A stretch of 64,000 nucleotides of DNA from Candidatus Poribacteria bacterium (GCA_022828145.1 JAJEJA010000009.1:31254-95253), one strand, 5' to 3'; positions 1,244-59,575 are shown, numbered from the stretch's first letter. Notes: generated by a model not told the origin, from the letters alone. Translations and numbers: made by a program.

Positions 1244-2014
1244 TCAATTTCCATCAAAATATCTCATTACAGTATCATGCAGGACTCCATTCGTTGCTAC
1301 CAATGAGGCAGTGTCTATCGAAATGGCTTGTCCTTGTATATCAGTAACGCACCCGCCTGCCTCCCGCACAATAACAGTAATCGCAGCGATGTCCCATATA
1401 CTAATTGCTGCTTCAATTACAACATCTGCTCTGCCAGAAGCCACGAGGTGATAACTGTAGAAATCACCAAACCCTCTTGAACGCGCAACATCATTGATAA
1501 GATTGTAGACACCGCGGAACGTTCCCTTTTCAACAAACCATTTCAGTCCGCCATGACATATCATCGCATCTGATGATTGAGAAACATCTGATACTTTAAT
1601 CTGATTGCCATTCAGGAATGCTCCTTTACCTACTTGTGCATATAGTAGTTCATCTAATAATGGGGCATTGGAAACGCCAAGTATAAGCTCTTCACCTTTC
1701 ATCAGTGCGATCTGTGTTCCAAAAATAGGTATTTTTCGTATATAATTTTTTGTTGCATCAATTGGGTCAATAATCCATACGTAAGGGGAATCACCCTTCT
1801 CAATGCCATATTCTTCTCCCAAAAACCCGTGGTCTGGAAAGCTCTGTTTGATGGTCTCCCGTATCGCTTTTTCTGCTTCTGTGTCTGCACGTGTAACCGG
1901 GGTTTCATCCGGTTTTAACGTCACGTCTAATGTATCTGCGTTGTAATATGAAAGCAGTATCTCTTCGGCTCTTTTTGCTGCATCTAATGCAACTATTAGA
2001 AATTGACTATCCAT
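1244..2014 (-). CDS. Inositol monophosphatase family protein (IMPase/SuhB-like)
   Basis: 256 aa with the WIIDPIDATKNY motif and overall IMPase/FBPase-family architecture. Confidence 0.8.
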   Translation of the reverse strand: MDSQFLIVALDAAKRAEEILLSYYNADTLDVTLKPDETPVTRADTEAEKAIRETIKQSFPDHGFLGEEYGIEKGDSPYVWIIDPIDATKNYIRKIPIFGTQIALMKGEELILGVSNAPLLDELLYAQVGKGAFLNGNQIKVSDVSQSSDAMICHGGLKWFVEKGTFRGVYNLINDVARSRGFGDFYSYHLVASGRADVVIEAAISIWDIAAITVIVREAGGCVTDIQGQAISIDTASLVATNGVLHDTVMRYFDGN

Positions 2015-2112
2015 TAATTATTTCAATCCTATATAGTAAATTTGGAATTATCTAAACACATATCGGTTAGCACAGATACATTTCCTGACAATTCATTGCC
2101 CGTATTATCCCT

Positions 2113-2505
2113 TCAATGTGTTCTGAAAAACCGTCTTGTTATACGTGAGAAAAAACTACGATTCTCTGCTACAAGCCGATAAACTATCTCTGTTATTTTT
2201 GCAAATCCGGGTAGTTTCTCGTAAAACCAGATAAGCATACCATTGTCTAAGGCACGAAATATCGCTTCTGCACCGGAATAGACCTGTCCATCATCTAAAA
2301 TGAACTGTACCGAAGTCTGAAAATCAGAAATCGGAATATCTGAGAATTGATGAGAAACCGCTTGGTAGGGGGCATAGACAATACGATCTTTAGTCAGATG
2401 TTTCCACCGATTTATACAGAAACTGCAAAAATCACACGCACCATCATAGACAAGAGTATGTTTTGTGTCTTTTGATTTCATCGGATACACATTGGCATCT
2501 GCCAT
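2113..2505 (-). CDS. DCC1-like thiol-disulfide oxidoreductase family protein (DUF393)
   Basis: Has the VYDGACDFC motif near the N-terminus. The ORF track extends to a TTG at 2517, but ATG at revcomp 2503-2505 is the likelier start. It sits immediately downstream of the DegT gene. Confidence 0.55.
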   Translation of the reverse strand: MADANVYPMKSKDTKHTLVYDGACDFCSFCINRWKHLTKDRIVYAPYQAVSHQFSDIPISDFQTSVQFILDDGQVYSGAEAIFRALDNGMLIWFYEKLPGFAKITEIVYRLVAENRSFFSRITRRFFRTH

Positions 2506-2517
2506 GCTTAGAAACAA

Positions 2518-3747
2518 TTAATGCCACGCTTCTTTAATTTTTAAAATCGCTTCAACTATCTGATCCATGTCTGACGTTGTTCCAAGTAGCATGTTCTGAA
2601 ACAGCCACACACTCTGACGACATACAGATTCAGCATTAGGACACGGTAACGTTTGTATCCGATTAGGATACTTCTCTGCAACATGAGCAATGCCAGGTTC
2701 TTCGGACAAGGGTGAACGGTAACCCGTTGAGCATGGAATTCCTTCTGCGGATAATGCGTTGACAAATTCCTGTCGAGATTTATTACCAAAGTCTTCTGGT
2801 TCGTATTTCATACAATAGAGATGGTATCCATGTTTTGTTACCCAATTAGCATGTTTCGGTGGCGTGATCCCGTCAATCTGTTCCAAGGCATTGCTAAGAT
2901 ATAGCGCGTTTCTATTTCGTAAATTGGTCTGTTCTTCAAGGAGTTCCAATCTCACCAACAGTATCGCAGCAAGATATTCAGAGGGGCGGTAGTTCCAGCC
3001 GAGTCTTGGATATTCCCATCTTGCCCCACCAGGCGCGCGTCCAACATTCATGAAAGCACAAACGCGATCATGTATGTCCTTATCATCTGTTGTCACCATA
3101 CCCCCTTCACCAGATGTAAGATTCTTTGATGATTGAAAACTAAATGCACCCACATCTCCTACACTTCCCACTTTTTTGGATTGATATTCCGCACCGTGTG
3201 CCTGGGCACAATCTTCTACTATCTTCAACTCGTGTTTGTCTGCTATCTCTTGTAGTGTTCCCATATCAGCTGGATGTCCGCCTAAATGTACGGGTAGGAT
3301 TGCATGTGTATTGGGGGTAATTGCTGCGTCAACTGCCTCGGGATCAATCGTGAATGAATCTGGACACACATCAACAAAACAGACTTTGCAGTTACGTTCT
3401 AACACCGCGCTTGCTGTAGCAACAAAAGTGTAATTCGGTACAATCACCTCGCCACCATCGCTGAACCCATCAAGATCTAATGCCCCAGCTAATGCTGCAC
3501 TGATGGAATCAGTTCCATGTGGCATAAAAATAGCGTAATTAGTTCCTGAATATTGTGCATATTTATCAGAAAAACGTGGGATCATCGTTCCGCCAGAACC
3601 CTCATGACCACTAAAATAAACTTCACGAAGTAACGGTTCAATCTTATCATCCCACTCATCAATAGAATGATAGGGCCACGTCTTCCACGGTTGTTTTTTC
3701 GTATCCCTGACTGGAGTACCGCCAGAAATTGCTAACTGATTGGACAT
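2518..3747 (-). CDS. DegT/DnrJ/EryC1/StrS-family PLP-dependent aminotransferase
   Basis: 409 aa with the FSFQSSKNLTSGEGGMVTTDD motif (the PLP lysine region of the DegT family). Confidence 0.8.
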   Translation of the reverse strand: MSNQLAISGGTPVRDTKKQPWKTWPYHSIDEWDDKIEPLLREVYFSGHEGSGGTMIPRFSDKYAQYSGTNYAIFMPHGTDSISAALAGALDLDGFSDGGEVIVPNYTFVATASAVLERNCKVCFVDVCPDSFTIDPEAVDAAITPNTHAILPVHLGGHPADMGTLQEIADKHELKIVEDCAQAHGAEYQSKKVGSVGDVGAFSFQSSKNLTSGEGGMVTTDDKDIHDRVCAFMNVGRAPGGARWEYPRLGWNYRPSEYLAAILLVRLELLEEQTNLRNRNALYLSNALEQIDGITPPKHANWVTKHGYHLYCMKYEPEDFGNKSRQEFVNALSAEGIPCSTGYRSPLSEEPGIAHVAEKYPNRIQTLPCPNAESVCRQSVWLFQNMLLGTTSDMDQIVEAILKIKEAWH

Positions 3748-4992: not shown

Positions 4993-6111
4993 TTACTTCT
5001 GATTTTCTGAAGGTTGAGGATCATCCGCTTCAAGTTTCTCAATCAATTCATCAATCCTATCCTCTAATTGATTAACCCGCTCTTTTAACTCACTAATTTC
5101 ATTAGAATCACCCGTTGTTTTCTTGAATGTATCAGGATTAATTTCAAGAACTTTCGCTCCATCTTTTTCTATAATAATGGTAGCATCAGGATGTTTCTGC
5201 TCAAATAGTTTTCTAATCGCATCAACTAACGCATCAGAATCTGTGTCTTTGATGAGTTTTTCTATATGTAACTTAATATCTTCAATATCCTTTAAATTCT
5301 TCTCAAGGTTTTTAAAATTATTCTCAACGATTGCAGAACCGGAGGGATTAACTTTTATGACCTTGACACCACCCACACTAAAAGTTCCATTAGCATCCAT
5401 CTGATAGTTCTTAAGAAGCTCCTTTATCTGCTTAGACAGCTCATCAGAATCAGCAGAGAGTTCTTTCGTAAGTTTCACGATCTTTTCTGTGAGTTTATCA
5501 ACTTCAGCTGAATCCAAAAACTTCATAGATAAACTGTTTATATCTTTTTTCAGAACTTTAATATTATCAGAATCAACTATGGTGGTCAAATCGCTGTCAA
5601 TTTTATCCTTCAGTGCTGTAATGATTTCTGACAACTCCCCAACATCTAAATCCTTACCCTTGACAATCTTTGACTTACCATCAGGAGTTATTGTATAAAC
5701 AACCCAACCATCTTCTCCATCTAACTTGACAGAATCAACGAATTCAACTTCAACATCCTTGATGTTATCAAGCCCTTTAAACAATTCCTCTATTTTTTTT
5801 GTTAACTTTTCAAAATCAGAAGTCTTCCTATCAAACTCATCATCGGAAAGTTCCTTAGCGGATTCTGTGATTACCTTAACCTTCTCATGAATCTCATCAA
5901 CCTTATTCTCAACTTCAACAACATCCGTTTGATTATTTGTGTCTTCATCAGACTCGGTACTATCTTCATTAATCTCAGTTTCATGCGGTGTCTCAGATTC
6001 TTCAGTCGTGTTTGCATCTTCAGGTGTTCCAACATCTGAATTAACCATGAATGCAGTCACTCCCAGAAGTAACACAAGCATGAACATAGCGACTAAACTT
6101 CTTATTTTCAT
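4993..6111 (-). CDS. Secreted acidic low-complexity protein (E/D/K-rich, coiled-coil-like), function unknown
   Basis: N-terminal signal peptide MKIRSLVAMFMLVLLLGVTAFMVNS. No recognisable domain. Confidence 0.5.
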   Translation of the reverse strand: MKIRSLVAMFMLVLLLGVTAFMVNSDVGTPEDANTTEESETPHETEINEDSTESDEDTNNQTDVVEVENKVDEIHEKVKVITESAKELSDDEFDRKTSDFEKLTKKIEELFKGLDNIKDVEVEFVDSVKLDGEDGWVVYTITPDGKSKIVKGKDLDVGELSEIITALKDKIDSDLTTIVDSDNIKVLKKDINSLSMKFLDSAEVDKLTEKIVKLTKELSADSDELSKQIKELLKNYQMDANGTFSVGGVKVIKVNPSGSAIVENNFKNLEKNLKDIEDIKLHIEKLIKDTDSDALVDAIRKLFEQKHPDATIIIEKDGAKVLEINPDTFKKTTGDSNEISELKERVNQLEDRIDELIEKLEADDPQPSENQK

Positions 6112-6154
6112 TTTATGCTCCTTTTATGTTGACTATAAAAAATCTAAACAAACT

Positions 6155-6218: not shown

Positions 6219-6260
6219 CTTCCAGCCTTCCAGCCTTACTCCCTTCCAGCCTTCAACCTT
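6219..6260. repeat. Short tandem CTTCCAGCCTT-type repeats x3
   Basis: cttccagccttccagccttactcccttccagccttcaacctt. It shares the CTTCCA core with the octamer array at 11541. Confidence 0.6.
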
Positions 6261-6291
6261 TAAGTTTTATACACTAATTATTGAAAATAGT

Positions 6292-7365: not shown

Positions 7366-7983
7366 AAATGATGGTAGCGATAAAAATGGTCAGTAACTTC
7401 ATGAAAGGCGGAATGGCACAGAGATAAGGACTCTGTGCCACCCCTGAACTCTGACAAGTTCAGGTTGCCATAGTTTGTGATAAATGTATCAGTTACGTGG
7501 GTTCATGTCAAGTATATCACGACATAAACATTGAAGTTAACAATACGTTATCACAGGGACCCATAATAATAGTGTTGATTTTAACGTATAAGATAAAAGC
7601 AACGTATAATTTATTATGAGAGTTTAGTAGTGGGAGATAGAGCCTTCTACCTCCCTGGCAACCTTTGTATAAGTTATAATAACATATCTATTTTTGTATG
7701 TCAAGTTTAAATTTATACTGACTTAGCCAGTTTTTGGAAGTATGTTTTATCCTGAATGAAACAATGAAGTTGCCGGTTGCCATTAGTCGTTGTTTGCCTG
7801 CTGTAAAACAATAGTAGTGTATGATTGACTTTCTCACGCTAGCTATATGAAAACACTGATAAACAAAGGTATTCAGAAAAACTGGGGCAAGTCAGTAAAA
7901 ACTGGCATCAAAGACACGGAATATCTCTGTTGAGACCGTTATTTTGTTGGTTTTATAGAAGGAGCCAGAAACAGGTATATATC

Positions 7984-9348: not shown

Positions 9349-9507
9349 AGCCTCTCCCCCTATTGTTAGTGAAATGCAATACAGTTAGTCTCTAATGAAA
9401 ACCAAAGAAGATTACTGGAGCTGCGAAATTGCGATCTGTACCGTAGATCTCTATCTGATGTGAATTCTCTACGGCACAGAACACAGTGGACAGTTCAAGT
9501 CAAACTT

Positions 9508-9610
9508 GTAGGTCGGGTAGAGCGAAGCGCCAATAAAATATTAACTGGCGACATGATAGACACAATCAATACGTGTCGGGTTTCGTTCCTCTACCCGACC
9601 TACATTTTTT
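9508..9610. repeat. Inverted-repeat element family C (GTAGGTCGGGTAGAGGAACGAAACCCGACA) followed by a T-run
   Basis: Left arm gtaggtcgggtagag at 9508-9522; right arm tgtcgggtttcgttcctctacccgacctac at 9574-9603, then tttttt. The same family forms a perfect 35-bp inverted repeat at 59482-59575. Confidence 0.7.
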
Positions 9611-11427: not shown

Positions 11428-11540
11428 TCAATTCCTCCATATTTTATTTCTCAAGATATACTAACACAAATTTACGATTGTTGCAATCAATTTCATGACA
11501 ATACCTTCATCAACATTCAACATTTTGTTAGATTGTGTCC

Positions 11541-11612
11541 CTTCCAATCTTCCATTCTTCCAATCTTCCAATCTTCCAATCTTCCATTCTTCCAATCTTC
11601 TATTCTTCCAAC
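11541..11612. repeat. Octamer microsatellite (CTTCCAAT/CTTCCATT) x9, flanked by an 18-bp direct repeat
   Basis: Nine consecutive 8-bp units. gttagattgtgtcccttc occurs at 11527-11544 and again at 11633-11650. The array sits in the pckG upstream region. Confidence 0.85.
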
Positions 11613-11657
11613 CTTTCTTTGTATCACCTTCAGTTAGATTGTGTCCCTTCATATCGG

Positions 11658-28781: not shown

Positions 28782-28784
28782 CTT

Positions 28785-28846
28785 AATAGTAGTAGGCATA
28801 CTCCGTGTGCTGTTCTCTTAATAGTAGTAGGCATACTCCGTGTGCT
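28785..28846. repeat. Repeat family B (AATAGTAGTAGGCAtACTCCGTGTGCt hairpin) x2 immediately after the purF stop
   Basis: Two direct copies at 28785-28811 and 28820-28846. The same family recurs at 49441 and three times at 54265-54365. Confidence 0.8.
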
Positions 28847-28856
28847 ATCCTCAACT

Positions 28857-39182: not shown

Positions 39183-41684
39183 TTAAAATTCCAACGTAAG
39201 TCCAACATAAAAAATTCGGGGTAACTGCTGAATTTCTTCTGATTCCCATTCGTCTATCACGATCTCTTCATCTTGAACAATTATCGTAGCTTCTCTGAAA
39301 CTAAATTTTATCTTGTTTTTTCGGTTGTAGAGGTTGATTATATCAATAAACCCACCGATTTTAGTGCCTCTTACCTTCCACTTATGACTTATCCTGAAAT
39401 CTAACTTATGGTAAGGTTTCAGTTCAGCTTGTAACTCTTCATCAACACTTGCCAACAAAGGATTCAATCCACGTGTTACAGGATCCTGGATGAGTATCAG
39501 CGAACTGATAGGAACTTCAGATGTCCCACTTAGATACTGCCATTTTAGTCCCATTTCAGTGTTCTCTGAAAAACTATAGTTGGAAACAATACTCACTATA
39601 TGTGTATTATCAAATAGGTATGGACTGTATAACGCGTTAGTTTTCTCACGTTGTTCAGCATGTGTATAAGAATATGAAACCCATCCGAAGAATTTATCAG
39701 GAATTCTATGACGTAAGAAGGCTTCAACACCACCTACATAAGCAGAACCTTGATTTTGAAAATTGGAGATGGTATCAGCGGTCGCAATGCTTCCCCCTTC
39801 TGATTCTGCAAGTGCTTCTCCGGGTTGAACTGGTATTCTGTCATTGATGACCATATTCTGGGTATCTTTGTAATATGTTGCAAACTTAAAATCTGTCTGC
39901 TGCGTGAATTCATTTTCTATTTCAAAGATATAATGTCGTGCAATACTTGATTTTAATGATGGGTTGCCGTTGTCAGACAAGAGTTGGTAGGGACTTGGAC
40001 TCTGTTCATACTGTCCGTAAGCAAAACGGAGGTTGAAATCATTCTGGAGTTTGACATTCACACTGGCTCTCGGTTGAACAGAGAGTTCTTCAGTTAGATC
40101 AAGATAATCCAACCGAGCACCAAGTGCTAATGAAAGCGTAGGTATTGGATCGTATCTCGCCTGCAAATAGCCTTCTGACCGATAGAAATCGTGTCCGAAT
40201 TCGAAATGCGTTAGTTCTAAATTTGTTATCTCATATCTGTCAGGTGTAAAGTATCCAAATGTATTGTCGTTATTTACATAAGTAACTTCACCTATTCTAC
40301 TGTCTTCAATGCGTTCATATTCATATATTCTTCCCTCTTCAAAGCTATTTGCTGGACTAAAAGACAGAAGAAAACCCGATTCAAGTTGAATCAAAGGATT
40401 CAACTTATATATGATGTCTTCTCGTAAAGTGTAAACCGGGACATCTATCTTTACCTCATAAGAATTGTTTACGATTTCTTCCGCAACTAATTTTCCATCT
40501 TCAAATACTGCATCTTTAAATTCTGCCTGATCATCTACGACCTTATAAGAGAGAACGATCGGTTCTTTTAGATCAATATCAAGTATATTTAAAGTTCGAG
40601 TTAAAGATAGATTTGATGTCAAATTATCCCATAATTCTGATCGGAGATGAATGCCTTGTCCTGAAAAACCGTTCTTGAAATATATGCCTGTTCTACCAAC
40701 ATCTGGTTGAATACTGTCCGGATCTTCTTCTTCTTTAAAGTCAAAATGGTCTGTAGCAGCAAATGCGTTAACTGTTAGGGTATGTCTGTCATTCAGTTCG
40801 TAATTAAGTTTGATCTGATAATCAGAAAAATAAGGAAACTGTTGTTCAGTTCCTGTCTGTGCTTCAACAATTGGTCCTGCGATTAAATCGAAATAACTTC
40901 TACGTCCTGAGACTGAAATGTACCCTTTATCACCTAATTTGCCTTCAAGTAATCCCTCAGAATAGAGTATATTCAGGTTGAATTTTCCATCTAACCTCCC
41001 TTTAATACTATCACGTGTATGGATATCGAGAACAGATTGTGAATCTAAACCAAACTCAGCCCCATATCCACCAGCATAGATATCAATTTTCTCAATAGTT
41101 TCTGAACTGATAGTTGAAAGAAACCCTCCCCAATGGAATGGATAGCCGAGTTGTGTCCGATCAAGATAGTATAGGTTTGATCCTGGTTCACTACCGCGTA
41201 TATAGAGTATACCAAAAAAATCATTTGGAATCCCGATACTTGGAAGTGTCGTTAAACCCTTAAGCGCATCTGTACCAACCCCAGCAATACGCAAGAGTTC
41301 GTTTCCCCGTATATCTTTTCTACTAATCGTTAGGGGTATACGTTCACCTTCAACAACGACTGTTTCTAATTCAAATACCTCCCCAAGGGATACTCTCGTC
41401 TGTGTTGTATGTCCTGCTGTAACTTCTACAGTGACATTTATCGGTGTTGGAAACGAATTATGAGAAATAGAAAGAGAGTATGTGCCTGGCGGGATTCCCG
41501 TAAACCATACTTTACCTTCAGCATTACTTTTTTCACGTTGATCTGTCTCTATGAGATGTACTTCTGCATTTTCAAGTGGTCTTTCTGTATTTTGATTATA
41601 GACGGTGATTTCGATTGTACCTGTTTGTGCAACAGCAGTTGCAGCAAAAACGAAGAATAACATTAAACTGACAAATTGCTTCAA
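39183..41684 (-). CDS. TonB-dependent receptor with an N-terminal carboxypeptidase-regulatory-like domain
   Basis: 833 aa with a signal peptide, GTIEITVYN...GTYSLSISH, a plug, and a barrel ending ...LTLEF. TTG start with an AAGGAG SD. Confidence 0.8.
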   Translation of the reverse strand: MKQFVSLMLFFVFAATAVAQTGTIEITVYNQNTERPLENAEVHLIETDQREKSNAEGKVWFTGIPPGTYSLSISHNSFPTPINVTVEVTAGHTTQTRVSLGEVFELETVVVEGERIPLTISRKDIRGNELLRIAGVGTDALKGLTTLPSIGIPNDFFGILYIRGSEPGSNLYYLDRTQLGYPFHWGGFLSTISSETIEKIDIYAGGYGAEFGLDSQSVLDIHTRDSIKGRLDGKFNLNILYSEGLLEGKLGDKGYISVSGRRSYFDLIAGPIVEAQTGTEQQFPYFSDYQIKLNYELNDRHTLTVNAFAATDHFDFKEEEDPDSIQPDVGRTGIYFKNGFSGQGIHLRSELWDNLTSNLSLTRTLNILDIDLKEPIVLSYKVVDDQAEFKDAVFEDGKLVAEEIVNNSYEVKIDVPVYTLREDIIYKLNPLIQLESGFLLSFSPANSFEEGRIYEYERIEDSRIGEVTYVNNDNTFGYFTPDRYEITNLELTHFEFGHDFYRSEGYLQARYDPIPTLSLALGARLDYLDLTEELSVQPRASVNVKLQNDFNLRFAYGQYEQSPSPYQLLSDNGNPSLKSSIARHYIFEIENEFTQQTDFKFATYYKDTQNMVINDRIPVQPGEALAESEGGSIATADTISNFQNQGSAYVGGVEAFLRHRIPDKFFGWVSYSYTHAEQREKTNALYSPYLFDNTHIVSIVSNYSFSENTEMGLKWQYLSGTSEVPISSLILIQDPVTRGLNPLLASVDEELQAELKPYHKLDFRISHKWKVRGTKIGGFIDIINLYNRKNKIKFSFREATIIVQDEEIVIDEWESEEIQQLPRIFYVGLTLEF

Positions 41685-41923
41685 ATTACCTTCTCCTTAG
41701 GGGATTATATACAAGAATGAAACGATACGAAGCTATTCTTCGTTGACTCAAAATTGATTTTTAATTGTTTTTTTTGAATCTGGTCATAAAATGGGTAATG
41801 TGCAGCACCGTCAATGTTATTTGGGGTTAGACGCATAATCACACAGGTGAAAACGATGATGCTGTTTTCACTATCTGGTTGGAGAACTACCGTGACGAAT
41901 TCAGGACCGCTTACTGCATCGGT

Positions 41924-42184
41924 TCAAACTTCCGACTCATACAATGCTTGTAATAATGCATCAACATCGGTGGTGTTGCTTGCTTTGTTAAACAGATCTA
42001 CCAAACGATCATGGTCCTGAATAGATTCAAGTGTCTGCTTTACAAGTTGTATATCGCTTGACGGAATACTCCCAATAAGCACTCTCAAAATATGTGTGAT
42101 AAGATATTTACGTTCTCTTTCTCTTCTTAAATGTTCTTCAAAGGAAAAATGTTCAATATAGGTAAAGGGAGATTCTTGCATCAT
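41924..42184 (-). CDS. Small hypothetical protein (86 aa)
   Basis: GGAGG SD upstream. It is preceded by a consensus minus-strand promoter that is part of the inverted E module. Confidence 0.4.
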   Translation of the reverse strand: MMQESPFTYIEHFSFEEHLRRERERKYLITHILRVLIGSIPSSDIQLVKQTLESIQDHDRLVDLFNKASNTTDVDALLQALYESEV

Positions 42185-42288
42185 TTCCTCCGATATTAGT
42201 TTCGGCGTACCTATCCATCAGAAACTTCACGATTTCATCAAATTGTGCCATGTTATGTGTTCCGCCTTTCGGACAAGTACTTTTATTG

Positions 42289-42318
42289 ATTATACTTGAT
42301 GGGACGGTGGATTGTCAA
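42289..42318 (-). promoter_or_regulatory. Sigma70 consensus promoter (minus strand) driving the small ORF at 42184
   Basis: On the minus strand: TTGACA (42318..42313), 18-nt spacer, TATAAT (42294..42289). Confidence 0.5.
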
Positions 42319-42357
42319 GGGAAGTTTTTGCCACTCTATTTGTCTGAATCGCGGAGG
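42319..42357 (-). repeat. Inverted copy of the upstream module E (tccgcgattc(a/t)gacaaatagagtg(g)caaaaactt)
   Basis: Revcomp of 42320-42355 = tccgcgattcagacaaatagagtggcaaaaacttcc; this matches the 42839-42872 part of E1 at 34 of 35 aligned positions (one indel). Together they form roughly 40-bp inverted flanks around the repeat island. Confidence 0.75.
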
Positions 42358-42363
42358 ACGTGG

Positions 42364-42545
42364 TAATACCCCCAGGCCGGTAGGTTTGGTTTCCTAACCG
42401 AACCGGATTCTACGCGAAAACCTTAATACCCCAGGCCGGTAGGTTTGGTTTCCTAACCGAACCGGATTCTACGCGAAAACCTTAATACCCCAGGCCGGTA
42501 GGTTTGGTTTCCTAACCGAACCGGATTCTACGCGAGAACCTTTAT
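42364..42545. repeat. 59-bp tandem direct repeat x3, each unit containing a family-A-like hairpin (ccggtaggtttggtttcctaaccgaaccgg)
   Basis: Unit: taataccccaggccggtaggtttggtttcctaaccgaaccggattctacgcgaaaacct. The hairpin cores start at 42377, 42436 and 42495, giving a 59-bp period. The units are near-identical, so these are not CRISPR spacers. Confidence 0.85.
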
Positions 42546-42564
42546 AAACGCAAATGAAGCAAAG

Positions 42565-42594
42565 CCGGTTCGGTTGGGAAACCGAACCTACCGG
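42565..42594. repeat. Inverted family-A-like copy terminating the tandem array
   Basis: ccggttcggttgggaaaccgaacctaccgg is the revcomp of ccggtaggttcggtttcccaaccgaaccgg. Confidence 0.8.
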
Positions 42595-42634
42595 CCTGGG
42601 GAAATCTGATTTTTCAAACTCACGTTAAATATAG

Positions 42635-42780
42635 AAGCACAATCTAACAGAATGTGCTACGGCAGTGTGAAGATGGATGGTGTGGGGGGAAGGATAATGA
42701 TGGATGAAAGGGGTTGGAGGAAGAAGCACAATCTAACAGAATGTGCTACAAAGAAAGGCACAATCTAACAGAATGTGCTA
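42635..42780. repeat. Repeat family D: three copies of the hairpin AGCACAATCTAACAGAATGTGCTAC
   Basis: Copies at 42635-42660, 42725-42748 and 42757-42780. The stem is AGCACA/TGTGCT with an 11-nt loop. Copies 1 and 3 are followed by ggcagtgt(g/c)aag. Confidence 0.8.
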
Positions 42781-42837
42781 CGGCAGTGTCAAGTAGGTTA
42801 GGAACATGAGCCTCTTAAAATCCGCGAAATCTGTGAA

Positions 42838-42925
42838 ATCCGCGATTCTGACAAATAGAGTGCAAAAACTTTACACACCCCACCCGTATTATATTATTGA
42901 CACTCACAAATAGGTGTGGTAATAT
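42838..42925 (+). promoter_or_regulatory. Upstream module E1 plus sigma70 promoter for lnt-prfB
   Basis: atccgcgattctgacaaatagagtgcaaaaactttacacaccc (42838-42880), then TTGACA (42897-42902), 17-nt spacer, TAATAT (42920-42925). A near-identical module precedes the GGGPS gene at 57731. Confidence 0.6.
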
Positions 42926-42947
42926 TTCCATAAGTTTATTTGATCTT

Positions 42948-44528
42948 ATGGTAAGAACTTTGAGTTTTGTAAAACGTTATCGTTATCTACTTGCAGGCAG
43001 TTCAGGGATTCTCTTGTTTTGTAGTTTTCCTAATGTCAACTTCTTTCCACTGGCGTGGGTCGCATTAATTCCTTTATTAATCGCACTTGAGACGGGAGTG
43101 AGTCGGAAATCCTCATTTTTGATGGGGTACATAACAGGATTGGTTTTTTTCGCGGGTCTATTGTTAGCAATTGTTCTGCTATATCCTTATGCACACATCC
43201 TAACAACCTTACTCGGTTATACACTCTTAGTAGGTTATACTGCACTCTATTTTGCAGTCTTTGCAGTATTAGTCCATATTTTGCCATGGCGGACAGGCAT
43301 ATTATACCCTACTGCTGTCGCTTCAATCTGGGTTGGTTTAGAATGGATCAAAGGTTGGCTCTTAACCGGATTTCCGTGGGGGAATATCGGATATTCACAG
43401 TGGAACTTTGTTCAAGGAATTCAGATTGCATCTATCACCGGTGTTTACGGAATCAGCTTTATAGTTGTTTTCTTTAATGCAGGAATTGCGAAGTTAATCG
43501 TTAATATAGACAGATGGCGCGATGAACTGATAACTGTCATAGTGCCGTGTTTGTTAACGATAGTGTGTATTACCTACGGTTTTGTGGTCATAAATAGGCA
43601 TGATAATACAGAAAGCAGTCTACAGGTTGCGCTTGTACCTGGTAATATCTCACAACTTGAGAAATGGCAAAGATCGAATTTTCCAAGAATATTCGCAAAG
43701 TACCTCAACTTGTCAAAAAAAGCTGCGTTAAAAAAACCGGATATAATTGTCTGGCCTGAGACCGCTGTAAGCGGAGATGTGTTATCAGGCAAATTACCAA
43801 ACTACAACAAACGCTTTAAGGAATTCCAAGTGCAGATCGGGAACATACCTATGCTTATCGGAGCGACTGATCTTGATGCATACAACGATCTTTACAACCG
43901 TGTCATATCGGTATCTTCTGACAGTGAGATCGTTGGCAAATATGCGAAAATGCACCTCGTGCCGTTTGGAGAGTATGTACCATTAGCTGACTTTTTACCA
44001 AACTTTATCCAATTTCAACCTTATGAACACGGCAAGACGTTAGATACGTTACCAATTGTAAATGTTCAGCAACCAAAAGATGGCAATTTAAAGGTTGGAA
44101 CATCAATATGCTTCGAATCGGCGTTTCCAAATCATTTTCGCAAGTTCGTGAAAAAGGGGGCAGATGTAATGGGGATTCTGACCAACGATGCTTGGTTTAT
44201 CGGAACTGCATTCCCTGAACTTCACTTAGCAATGGCACCGATGCGGGCAGTAGAGAACAGAATCGCTGTTTTCAGATGTGCAAATGGAGGATATACATGT
44301 GTCGTTGACAAGTATGGAAGAATAAAAAGACCGATGGTAACACCCCAACAAACAGAAGACCAATTCATAAACGCGGAAATAGATCTTAAAGAAGGAAACC
44401 AGACACTTTACACACGCTATGGCGATTGGTTACCTATTCTCTGTGTCGTGTTTTCTATCGTCAGTTTAACAGCAGTACGAATACTCGGTTTAATCTCATC
44501 AATAACGCAATCAACGAAATCAAAATAA
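42948..44528 (+). CDS. lnt: Apolipoprotein N-acyltransferase
   Basis: Polytopic N-terminal region plus a C-terminal CN-hydrolase domain (...IIVWPETAV..., ...CFESAFP...). Start ATG 42948 was chosen because the track start at 42897 lies inside the promoter. Confidence 0.8.
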   Translation: MVRTLSFVKRYRYLLAGSSGILLFCSFPNVNFFPLAWVALIPLLIALETGVSRKSSFLMGYITGLVFFAGLLLAIVLLYPYAHILTTLLGYTLLVGYTALYFAVFAVLVHILPWRTGILYPTAVASIWVGLEWIKGWLLTGFPWGNIGYSQWNFVQGIQIASITGVYGISFIVVFFNAGIAKLIVNIDRWRDELITVIVPCLLTIVCITYGFVVINRHDNTESSLQVALVPGNISQLEKWQRSNFPRIFAKYLNLSKKAALKKPDIIVWPETAVSGDVLSGKLPNYNKRFKEFQVQIGNIPMLIGATDLDAYNDLYNRVISVSSDSEIVGKYAKMHLVPFGEYVPLADFLPNFIQFQPYEHGKTLDTLPIVNVQQPKDGNLKVGTSICFESAFPNHFRKFVKKGADVMGILTNDAWFIGTAFPELHLAMAPMRAVENRIAVFRCANGGYTCVVDKYGRIKRPMVTPQQTEDQFINAEIDLKEGNQTLYTRYGDWLPILCVVFSIVSLTAVRILGLISSITQSTKSK

Positions 44529-44540
44529 CGGATGGAGAAT

Positions 44541-45636
44541 ATGCTATCAGACTATAAATCAGAAATAGATAGGATTACGATTCAACTACAAGAACTCAGG
44601 GGGTTTCTTTGACCTGCCAACAAAACAGCAAGAGTTGGTTGAACTTGAGAAAGAAGCATTGAAACCAGATTTCTGGGCAAACTCCCAACAGGTGCAAAAA
44701 GTAAATCAACGGATATCTTTTCTCAAAGATGAAATTGGTGAATATGAAAAAGTAGCAGGTTTAGTTGAAGATTTACAAACCTTATTGGAGCTTGCCATTG
44801 AAGAAAACGACAACAGTTTTGAACCTGAAATTGAAAGCGGATTAAAGGAAGTTACCGCACAGTTAGAGAAAATCGAATTGCGATTGATGCTGAACGGTGA
44901 GTTTGACCATAACAACGCAATACTGAACATCCATCCAGGCGCAGGCGGCGTTGATGCACAGGATTGGGCAGGGATGCTGATGCGAATGTATCTGCGTTGG
45001 TGCGACCAACATAGCTACACTTCCGAAATAGCAGATATCACTCCTGGGGACGAAGCAGGAATTAAAGGTGCAACTATTTTTGTCAGCGGTCCATCAGCTT
45101 ATGGATACCTTCAAGCTGAATCTGGGGTTCACCGACTGGTTCGGTTATCCCCTTTCGACTTCAACAAACGACGACACACCTCTTTTGCAGCAGTCCATGT
45201 TACCCCCGAAATTGATGACAGTGTTGAAGTAGAAATCAGTACTGAAGACCTACGTATTGATACGTTTCGTGCAAGCGGTGCAGGTGGGCAACATGTGAAT
45301 GTAACAGACTCTGCTGTCCGTATTACGCACAAACCAACGGGCATAATGGTGCAGTGTCAGAATGAACGTTCTCAACACAAGAATAGAGAAATTGCCATGA
45401 AGGAAATGCGTTCTCGATTGTATCTGTTCTATCGCGCACAACGTGATGAGGAAATTGCCAAACTACAACCTGAACGTAGAAATATCGACTTTGGAAGCCA
45501 AATCCGATCTTATGTCTTGCATCCGTATCAACGTGTGAAAGATACGAGAACTAACATTGAAACAGGAAACGTTGATGCTGTCTTGAACGGGGATTTAGAT
45601 GCCTTTATAGAGGGTTATTTGAAAACAAAACCATAA
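44541..45636 (+). CDS. prfB: Peptide chain release factor 2, expressed via a programmed +1 ribosomal frameshift at CUU UGA C (44607-44613)
   Basis: Frame 0 reads MLSDYKSEIDRITIQLQELRGFL, then TGA (44610-44612). The +1 frame continues DLPTKQQELVELEKEALKPDFW... through the RF2 body (SPFD, GGQHVNVTDSAVRITHKPTG). An AGGGGG SD-like element lies 3 nt upstream of CUU, as in E. coli prfB. Confidence 0.9.
44598..44613 (+). promoter_or_regulatory. RF2 autoregulatory frameshift site (AGGGGG UUU CUU UGA C)
   Basis: Seen directly in the sequence. The +1 frame is confirmed by continuity with the 44635..45636 ORF (offset 24 nt). Confidence 0.9.
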
Positions 45637-49422: not shown

Positions 49423-49440
49423 TATGTCAAAAAACTATTA

Positions 49441-49470
49441 TATAGTAGTAGGCACTCTCCGTGTGCCGTC
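49441..49470. repeat. Repeat family B copy after the lolE-like stop
   Basis: tatagtagtaggcactctccgtgtgccgtc. Confidence 0.75.
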
Positions 49471-49481
49471 AACGTTGAAGT

Positions 49482-54257: not shown

Positions 54258-54264
54258 GAATATT

Positions 54265-54365
54265 AATAGTAGTAGGCACACTCCGATGTGCCGTTTTTGC
54301 ATAGTAGTAGGCACACTCCGATGTGCCGTTCTGGCATAGTAGTAGGCACACGCCGTGTGCCGTCA
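54265..54365. repeat. Repeat family B x3 in tandem after skp
   Basis: Three copies of (a)atagtagtaggcacac(t/g)ccg(a)tgtgccg. The first is followed by a T-run, so it is terminator-like. Confidence 0.8.
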
Positions 54366-54417
54366 GATGATACCTTGATATTGTAAGATTTCACCTGTTT
54401 CAATGAGGAAACTATAT

Positions 54418-57679: not shown

Positions 57680-57730
57680 GCCAGAACACCTTCCGCGTCT
57701 TCCGTGCCAGCTATGTTAACTGGCGCGTCA

Positions 57731-57818
57731 TCCGCGATTCTGACAAAAGGGTGCCGAATAACTTTACACACCCACTATATTATAAGAATTTGACAAATTC
57801 GTCCGATGGTGTTAAAAT
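57731..57818 (+). promoter_or_regulatory. Upstream module E2 plus sigma70 promoter for the GGGPS gene
   Basis: tccgcgattctgacaaaagggtgccgaataactttacacaccc (57731-57773), then TTGACA (57790-57795), 17-nt spacer, TAAAAT (57813-57818). Confidence 0.55.
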
Positions 57819-59481: not shown

Positions 59482-59575
59482 TTTTCGTAGGTCGGGTAGA
59501 GGAACGAAACCCGACATGGAAGTCTTTATCTAATCCTACGTGTCGGGTTTCGTTCCTCTACCCGACCTACGAAAA
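59482..59575. repeat. Perfect 35-bp inverted repeat (family C) with a 24-nt spacer, between grpE and dnaJ
   Basis: ttttcgtaggtcgggtagaggaacgaaacccgaca ...24 nt... tgtcgggtttcgttcctctacccgacctacgaaaa. Each arm also contains an internal gtcgggt/acccgac hairpin. Confidence 0.85.

Follow-up and report, generated by a model that had tools for sequence, protein, structure and literature searches.

What kind of DNA fills the gap upstream of lnt-prfB-lysS in a 64,000-nucleotide stretch of a Candidatus Poribacteria genome (GCA_022828145.1 JAJEJA010000009.1:31254-95253, hereafter the window)? An earlier note, made from the sequence alone, had described positions 42289-42925 as a repeat-dense non-coding island whose outer, mutually inverted E modules are fused to outward-pointing promoters. 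It had left open whether this is a composite element resembling a miniature inverted-repeat transposable element (MITE) with imported promoters, a structured non-coding RNA locus or a regulatory landing pad. All repeats listed in that note are present at their coordinates, and the repeat modules of the island (42319-42880) were absent from dinucleotide-preserving shuffles, which places them far beyond chance. Our analysis makes it very probable that the island is a MITE of ISKra4 type that arrived by promoter-targeted insertion, together with a nested, amplified cluster of repetitive extragenic palindromes (REPs) of the REPIN type (REP doublets forming hairpins) and a second REP-like family. 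In this view, mobile elements of familiar kinds have accumulated at one site, in a little-studied phylum. Its parts, including the hairpin families termed A and D, are as follows (L numbers here and below designate loci from other sequences).

42318-42289, minus strand: sigma70-type promoter match TTGACA-18-TATAAT (12/12 positions in a promoter scan), in flanking DNA
42319-42880, no strand assigned: whole MITE, ISKra4-type and non-autonomous, 562 bp, recognised by its shared ends and tip
42319-42363, plus strand: left MITE end (inverted E module), a degenerate tip followed by the subterminal GAATCGCGGAGGACG motif
42364-42546, plus strand: tandem array of 3.1 x 59 bp (Tandem Repeats Finder, TRF, score 343; copies 100, 100 and 97% identical)
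42562-42601, minus strand: inverted family-A REP, 40 nt, 93% complementary to the direct copies
42602-42634, plus strand: conserved REPIN flank including the dispersed motif ATTTTTCAAACTCACGTTAAAT, present at at least 8 other loci
42635-42781, plus strand: three D hairpins and a purine-rich stretch, a second REP-like palindromic family
42811-42880, plus strand: right MITE end, with subterminal AAATCCGCG repeats (42818-42845), terminal inverted repeat and 18-nt tip
42881-42896, plus strand: 16-nt gap between the tip, which ends at 42880, and the -35 element TTGACA, which starts at 42897
42897-42925, plus strand: lnt promoter TTGACA-17-(TG)TAATAT, from the promoter scan, kept in L119, L120 and L121

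The E modules identify the element that carries the island. They form a 30-nt inverted repeat with 90% complementarity (42326-42355 and 42839-42868), as the earlier note had seen, and reach 42319-42363 and 42831-42880 if a 6-bp gap is allowed. The right tip, CAAAAACTTTACACACCC (42863-42880), is identical at 18 of 18 positions to the tips of insertion sequences (ISs) in L082, L070 and L100. When the island was compared by BLAST with the fetched loci, the right E module was identical over 44 of 44 nt to L089 7037-7080, and the tip recurred at many loci, at times in inverted pairs spaced by about 1.45 kb. One such pair in L082 encloses a 1.46-kb IS, whose 9-bp target-site duplication (TSD), ATCGGAATG, is perfect. 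The 439-aa transposase of this IS (1902-3221) scores 247 bits on the ISKra4 family model NF033572 (cut-off 205) and also matches Pfam UPF0236 (E=1.2e-7). Further full-length copies of the IS are found in L070, with the 8-bp TSD TTTGTCAG, and in L100.

Short copies of the same family resemble the window element more closely in size. L160 3214-3463 is a 250-bp copy that combines the tip with the E-type subterminal CCGCGATTCTGACAAA motif and a 9-bp TSD (CACGTGTGC), and L089 6820-7080 is a copy of about 260 bp with the same E ends and CCGCGATTCTGACAAA motif. A short element of about 600 bp in L086 (2541-3143) has the same tip and an 8-bp TSD (CTACTGAA) and lacks the subterminal CCGCGATTCTGACAAA motif. 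After the nested REP block (42364-42634) is taken out, the backbone of the window MITE measures about 291 bp, near the 250-260 bp of the copies in L160 and L089; its orientation is reversed relative to the L089 copy. In reverse orientation, the MITE interiors of L089 and L045, which hold D-like hairpins and CTTCCAnn repeats, correspond to the D hairpins and purine-rich stretch at window 42635-42800. The longest open reading frame (ORF) within the 562 bp has 38 aa. These sequence matches show that the ends of 42319-42880 are of the ISKra4 type, and the suggestion of a composite MITE-like element was well placed. In L100, two ISKra4-type IS copies abut tip to tip at 7945-7979 (…CACACCG|GGTGTGTAAAG…), an arrangement that represents a tandem or head-to-head IS junction.

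The promoters beside the two ends are outward-directed, as described before, and lie outside the repeated DNA: the right -35 stands 16 nt past the right tip and the left one abuts a degenerate tip. To place the right end among other copies, we collected the DNA beyond each tip; a metagenome scan added 120 stretches, and the set comprised 139 unique flanks (independent ends). A perfect TTGACA (6/6) occurred at offset 16 in 21 of the 139 flanks against a background of 0.07 per offset, an excess of about 300-fold. With five or more matching bases the count rose to 32 (background 1.16), and with four or more to 42 (background 7.2). Promoter matches of 10/12 or better started at offset 16 in 24/139 flanks and at offsets 15-17 in 32/139, and base counts by position gave TTG at 17-19, TG at 37-38 and TAnnnT at 40-45. 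The offset effect was seen at both IS ends and in several subfamilies of differing subterminal sequence, and 16 nt is the characteristic tip-to--35 distance of the family.

The 16 nt between tip and -35, as well as the promoter spacers, are unrelated from copy to copy, and similarity among copies stops exactly at the tip. Because the TSDs abut the tip (L082, L070, L086, L160), the promoter is not part of the element, and the idea that it is was rejected. The MITE probably inserted 16 bp upstream of the lnt -35, and the promoters are therefore the insertion target of this transposase group and not its cargo, each being native to its flanking gene. We dropped promoter targeting as a new discovery, as it has already been published: the paper of Guerillot et al. 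(2014; PMC3942029) showed that TnGBS/ISLre2 and ISKra4-group elements enter the DNA 13-17 bp upstream of sigma-A promoters, and Brochet et al. (2009) is cited alongside in that paper for insertion upstream of promoters. The same work classifies the ISKra4 group as p-MULT 4 among the prokaryotic Mutator-like transposases, related to ISLre2 and TnGBS, ties a transposase signature motif between domains N1 and N2 to promoter targeting (Fig. 8 in PMC3942029), and reports promoters on both sides of an element if its inverted repeats are nearly perfect. Elsewhere in the window, a solo right half of an E-type MITE (…TCCGCGATTCTGACAAAAGGGTGCCGAATAACTTTACACACCC) lies at 57680-57773, directly after the stop codon of a gene, and at offset 16 it is followed by TTGACA-17-TAAAAT (57790-57818), the same geometry as at lnt.

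Nested inside the MITE, between its left subterminal region and the first D hairpin, is the REP block at 42364-42634. Each 59-bp unit of its tandem array consists of one family-A REP hairpin (core GGTAGGTTTGGTTTCCTAACCGAACC) and a spacer. The inverted copy, previously delimited as 42565-42594, was correctly placed in its core and extends in full over 42562-42601; with the third direct copy (42488-42527) it makes a REPIN-type doublet. Structure prediction, which had been recommended for the array, folded the doublet (42488-42613) as a 37-bp stem of -48 kcal/mol (z=-11.4), compared with z=-2.4 for a family-A hairpin alone. The REPIN flank that follows matches L022 2527-2595 at 93% over 69 nt, contiguous with a REP.

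Family A is a dispersed repeat found throughout Poribacteria. Its core GGTAGGTTYGGTTTCCYAACCGAACC also occurs at window positions 6154, 18073 and 18235, which brings the copies in the window to seven, and in a scan of one genome per species it was present in more than 118 stretches from at least 47 species-level metagenome-assembled genomes; among the matches listed, all but two were labelled Candidatus Poribacteria, which by itself places the window in this phylum. Copies inspected by eye for their placement lay between genes. For the geometry, 176 copies in 119 sources were used, and neighbours were taken as copies less than 400 nt apart. Inverted pairs showed a single polarity ('+-' 13, six of them at 69-71 nt; '-+' 0), next to 27 direct tandem pairs with periods of 34-72 nt.

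A candidate partner enzyme is found in related genomes. In L067, a 157-aa ORF (3084-3557) scores 115 bits on the NCBIfam model NF047646 for REP-associated tyrosine transposases (RAYTs; cut-off 80), matches Pfam Y1_Tnp (E=1.3e-17) and lies between inverted family-A hairpins at 3017(+) and 3584(-). A second RAYT, at L104 5585-5995, is likewise enclosed by inverted family-A hairpins. Because of the fixed doublet polarity and spacing, the inverted copies around RAYT genes and the fold of the doublet, family A is best taken as a true REP of a REP/REPIN-RAYT system. A set of three direct copies and an inverted one is not confined to lnt, since it recurs at the unrelated site L021 6866-7096, downstream of lipA; L021 also has a simple family-A doublet at 2440-2560, and arrays are present in L098 and L051. 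The statement that the island is not a simple REP cluster was therefore mistaken for its tandem units and second hairpin set, both of which are REP/REPIN-type repeats, family A having a RAYT partner in related genomes.

The second hairpin set, D (GCACAATCTAACAGAATGTGC), occurs at 42637-42657, 42726-42746 and 42758-42778, with 0 copies expected from shuffles. Between the first two lies a degenerate GGAAG/GGATG purine-rich stretch (42668-42725), the reverse of the CTTCCAnn repeats in other MITE copies. We counted 32 D copies in about 1.9 Mb of sequence examined. Their stems vary in a compensatory manner (GCACAATCT...AGATTGTGC, GCACAAACT...AGTTTGTGC, GCACAACCT...AGGTTATGC), and the family makes inverted doublets of its own in L040, L043 and L076. 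Considering D hairpins as purely internal parts of the MITE was partly rejected on account of these doublets and because just 12 of the 32 copies had an E motif within 400 nt. D is best regarded as another REP-like family, one that frequently accompanies the E-type MITE. As had been advised, E, family-A and D modules were compared with related genomes, and all three are multi-copy at unrelated loci.

The history of the site can be followed in orthologous loci, which we reached by an Lnt homology search; an exact look-up of the Lnt product returned no record. In L119, the closest by Lnt identity (91%), lnt adjoins an ATP-synthase operon, the intergenic region measures 63 bp, there is no MITE, and the core promoter ATTGACACTCACAAAGAGGTGTGGTAATAT is kept. 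The earlier note had named ordinary short lnt upstream regions in relatives, with the repeats scattered and the island silent, as speaking against its view; L119 has such a region and the repeats are scattered over many genomes, which largely bears out the sequence half of that objection. In L120 (Lnt 87% identical) and L121 (78%), a MITE tip occupies the corresponding position, with 11 nt between it and the -35. The repeats next to the tip in L120 are of the AATCCTGG type; L121 has two partial MITE ends, whose subterminal repeats are of the AATCCTGG type in one and of the AATCCGCG type in the other. Family-A REPs were absent upstream of lnt in both. In this clade, MITEs may have landed upstream of lnt repeatedly, and the REP array is specific to the window lineage. 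Because its core is kept in L119, where there is no MITE, and also in L120 and L121, the lnt promoter is native; the proposal that the element imported it fails on the same observation, as well as on the end of the repeated sequence at the tip in every copy.

Two features of these loci may be recorded here. L119 has AAG where the ATG of Lnt is expected (6075-6090, gatcATAAGGtaagaac), and the annotated start lies 24 codons upstream, over the promoter. L121 contains one more complete MITE at 5513-5718, upstream of the lnt-proximal one; it measures about 205 bp and its ends are related (GGTGTAAAGGTTTTGTCAC … GTGGCAAATACTTTAAACCC).

Other samples of the locus showed variation in the array and breaks at its edges. 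L244 (ERZ23491403) is 99.5-99.9% identical over the island and 59 nt shorter, with two 59-bp units (L244 606-729) and not three as at window 42364-42546. In Logan short-read data of another run, contig L242 begins at 42851, exactly 30 nt inside the right MITE tip, and contig L243 ends at 42292, about 27 nt outside the left E module. Such breaks at the island edges are expected of multi-copy DNA; near the L243 break, the 5' leader of the paralogous gene family on the left may be repeated.

We propose that the island consists of nested, non-autonomous mobile repeats that would have built up in a permissive gap between two divergent promoters. The geometry and the published behaviour of the transposase group suggest that a MITE inserted 16 bp upstream of the lnt -35. 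A REPIN, a pair of inverted REP hairpins that a RAYT of the Y1/HUH type mobilises in trans, would later have entered the MITE interior; its location inside the MITE is observed, and the absence of REPs from the orthologous regions of L120 and L121 points to this order of events. The left arm of the REPIN and its spacer would then have been amplified to three 59-bp units, likely by replication slippage or unequal recombination; the copies are 97-100% identical and another sample has two units. The D hairpins belong to the second REP-like family that commonly accompanies this MITE family. At present the left tip is decayed, reading GGGAAGTTTTTG in place of the canonical GGGTGTGTAAAGTTTTTG with 6 bp missing. 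Because this tip is degenerate and no TSD flanks the element, the window MITE is an old and probably immobile copy. Any effect on lnt-prfB-lysS would be a side effect of the displaced DNA upstream of -51 and not a designed function.

Several observations weigh against this reconstruction. The left tip agrees with the canonical one at only 12 of 18 nt, with a 6-bp gap, so that we infer the left boundary, and a search for a direct repeat flanking 42319 and 42880, which the earlier note had hoped for as a mark of insertion, found no TSD; its absence fits the decay of the left end. The left -35 adjoins the tip directly instead of standing 16 nt off. In L120 and L121, the tip-to--35 distance is 11 nt, not 16, and the MITE belongs to a different subfamily; these two loci are equally compatible with one ancient insertion and with recurrent insertion at a hot spot, and the lnt site has either long been occupied or been hit repeatedly. 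By tblastn, neither an autonomous IS nor a RAYT was found in the 64-kb window, both being known from related genomes. The two-unit array of L244 could be a real polymorphism or a collapse in short-read assembly. A transcript from the island, or a regulatory side effect on lnt-prfB-lysS, is possible. On a wider scale, promoter-seeking ISKra4-type MITEs might have spread through Poribacteria and repeatedly hit the same essential-gene promoters, with the MITEs and the REP arrays inside them systematically reshaping the DNA upstream of core promoters and hence expression. We regard this extension as improbable; the lnt upstream site does hold different MITE subfamilies across three lineages (window, L120 and L121).

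If the island had been domesticated, it would insulate the two divergent promoters or modulate lnt-prfB-lysS, an explanation that we consider unlikely. The same holds for its conceivable routes, i.e., replacement of an UP element, a hybrid tip promoter TTTACA-16-TATTAT, or REP hairpins serving as terminators or protein-binding sites. A MITE end does abut the lnt promoter in the window, L120 and L121, the tip holds an outward TTTACA that here pairs with TATTAT at 16-nt spacing, the minus-strand REP hairpin fits a terminator pattern, and REPs have host roles in other bacteria. Nevertheless, L119 lacks the island in spite of being closest by Lnt identity, the 139 flanks show no general -10 signal where a tip-borne -35 needs one, and island content varies by lineage, with no REPs in L120 and L121 and a differing MITE subfamily, while in the window the left tip is decaying. 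Nor did the idea of a regulatory landing pad gain support, each module being a dispersed multi-copy repeat. This dispersal, at unrelated loci and in both orientations for every hairpin family, also makes it very improbable that the island encodes a structured non-coding RNA or several small RNAs in an array, in spite of strong predicted hairpins and the lack of a protein-coding ORF. The hairpin energy is accounted for by the inverted arms of the REPIN, no promoter match is directed into the island, a permissive Rfam search of 41500-43500 gave only chance-level matches (none at E of 0.65 or better), and the 64-kb window had no match at gathering score.

A composite transposon or MITE that delivers outward promoters as cargo to neighbouring genes would explain the outward consensus promoters beside both ends, which are found likewise at many other copies, yet the sharp end of similarity at the tip, the abutting TSDs, the unrelated gaps and spacers and the presence of the lnt promoter without a MITE in L119 leave this with hardly any probability. 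Least probable of all is a degenerate array of the CRISPR kind (clustered regularly interspaced short palindromic repeats). Its palindromic repeats at regular spacing are the feature in common, but the sequences between hairpins, which would have to be unique spacers, are identical from unit to unit, one copy is inverted, and single copies of the repeat are also dispersed over at least 47 genomes, where it borders a RAYT gene in related ones. A CRISPR array was thus rejected, as the earlier note had already done on the identical units.

Compared with described systems, the element shares most with the ISKra4 group: its tip matches exactly that of full ISs with a transposase scoring above the NCBIfam ISKra4 cut-off, the inverted repeats are nearly perfect, other copies have 8-9-bp TSDs, the -35 stands 16 nt from the tip, and promoters occur beside either end, as reported for symmetric inverted repeats. 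The window copy differs in being a MITE with a backbone of about 290 bp and no transposase, in its subterminal AATCCGCG repeats, in its interior of REP-like hairpins and CTTCC repeats, and in its missing TSD and decayed left tip. In the cited literature, we found no description of MITE derivatives of the ISKra4 group or of this group in Poribacteria.

E. coli bacterial interspersed mosaic elements (BIMEs) are REP clusters with alternating orientations, unlike the window array, which is a direct tandem of REP plus spacer with three direct copies and one inverted. The Correia elements or NEMIS of Neisseria are small, multi-copy intergenic elements bounded by inverted repeats and found near promoters; Correia elements include parts of a promoter as well as an IHF site, and the target they duplicate is TA. 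The window MITE is likewise small, intergenic and multi-copy, with terminal inverted repeats and promoters beside it. For its family, however, the promoter is the target, the TSD has 8-9 bp and the parent IS family is a different one. REP/REPIN-RAYT systems are defined by inverted doublets and a RAYT flanked by REPs (Bertels and Rainey, 2011, PMC3116915; PMC3337134). Family A agrees with them as a short imperfect palindrome of high copy number that lies between genes, forms multi-copy clusters and inverted doublets of fixed polarity and spacing, and has a Y1/HUH RAYT within inverted copies. In contrast to them, it is kept at the level of a 26-mer over dozens of species of an uncultivated phylum, and the window array is nested within another mobile element. 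Novelty is confined to three points: the host phylum, MITE derivatives of the IS group, and a REP array made of direct tandem copies.

These results remove a false lead, the island being no new RNA gene, CRISPR-like system or promoter-carrying device. For Poribacteria, a dominant and uncultivated phylum of sponge symbionts, they document a REP/RAYT system with a 26-nt core in at least 47 species-level genomes and an ISKra4-type IS family with MITE derivatives. The flanks offer unusually clean natural data on the already published targeting of promoters by Mutator-like bacterial transposases, and the element tips could aid promoter annotation in Poribacteria genomes. If repeated landing at promoters is true, the tips of MITEs and ISs could mark real sigma70 promoters from sequence alone in a phylum without genetics. 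The repeats also explain short-read assembly breaks at such sites in Poribacteria genomes.

Plus-strand neighbours of the island are lnt, prfB and lysS; those on the minus strand are two TonB-dependent receptors. The immediate borders of the island are as follows.

41924-42251, minus strand: gene remnant consisting of 17 N-terminal codons (ATG 42251) and 86 C-terminal codons (42184-41924)
42948-44528, plus strand: lnt, apolipoprotein N-acyltransferase

No ORF of even 40 aa was found between 42184 and 42897, which strengthens the earlier statement that none of 60 aa or more precedes lnt. The likely start of lnt is the ATG at 42948; a longer TTG-initiated ORF from 42897 runs over the promoter. 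On the left, what had been called a small ORF at 42184 is present and is really the C-terminal remnant of an internally deleted gene. The 86-aa ORF is 47% identical to residues 212-289 of a 289-aa protein (L032 4646-5515, E=8e-17), and the N-terminus of the remnant reads MAQFDEIVKFLMDR, compared with MAQDDEIVKHLMDR in the 289-aa family. Because the ORF matches the C-terminus and the first 17 codons are kept at 42251, the gene has lost about 195 internal codons. Pfam and NCBIfam searches with the 86-aa ORF and its full-length 289-aa relative gave no significant family. The minus-strand promoter faces left, to this decayed gene, with its -35 abutting the degenerate left tip; its sequence was shared by no other locus in the BLAST comparison of the island with the fetched loci. 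The 12/12 match now stands upstream of a remnant.

The window contains further repeats. Tandem repeats of the 8-base units CTTCCAAT/CTTCCAGC lie at 11520-11655 and 6219-6262, with 9.4 copies at 11541-11615. The CTTCCAAT/CTTCCAGC array is bordered by D-like half hairpins at 11520 and 11626, and the CTTCCAnn repeats at both sites are like those in the interiors of E-type MITEs (L089, L045). A palindromic family, ATAGTAGTAGGCACACTCCGTGTGCC, is present at 28782-28851, 49438-49472 and 54262-54366 and forms 35-bp tandem arrays (TRF, 2.8 copies at 54266-54363). Another family, GTAGGTCGGGTAGAGGAACGAAACCCGACA, is present at 9502-9609 and at 59482-59575, where two 35-nt arms form a perfect inverted repeat around a 24-nt spacer, a REPIN-like arrangement. 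Downstream of lnt, prfB has a classic programmed +1 frameshift site, AGGGGGTTTCTTTGAC, at 44598-44613, which separates a short upstream frame (ATG 44542) from the 333-aa main frame within the region 44542-44640.

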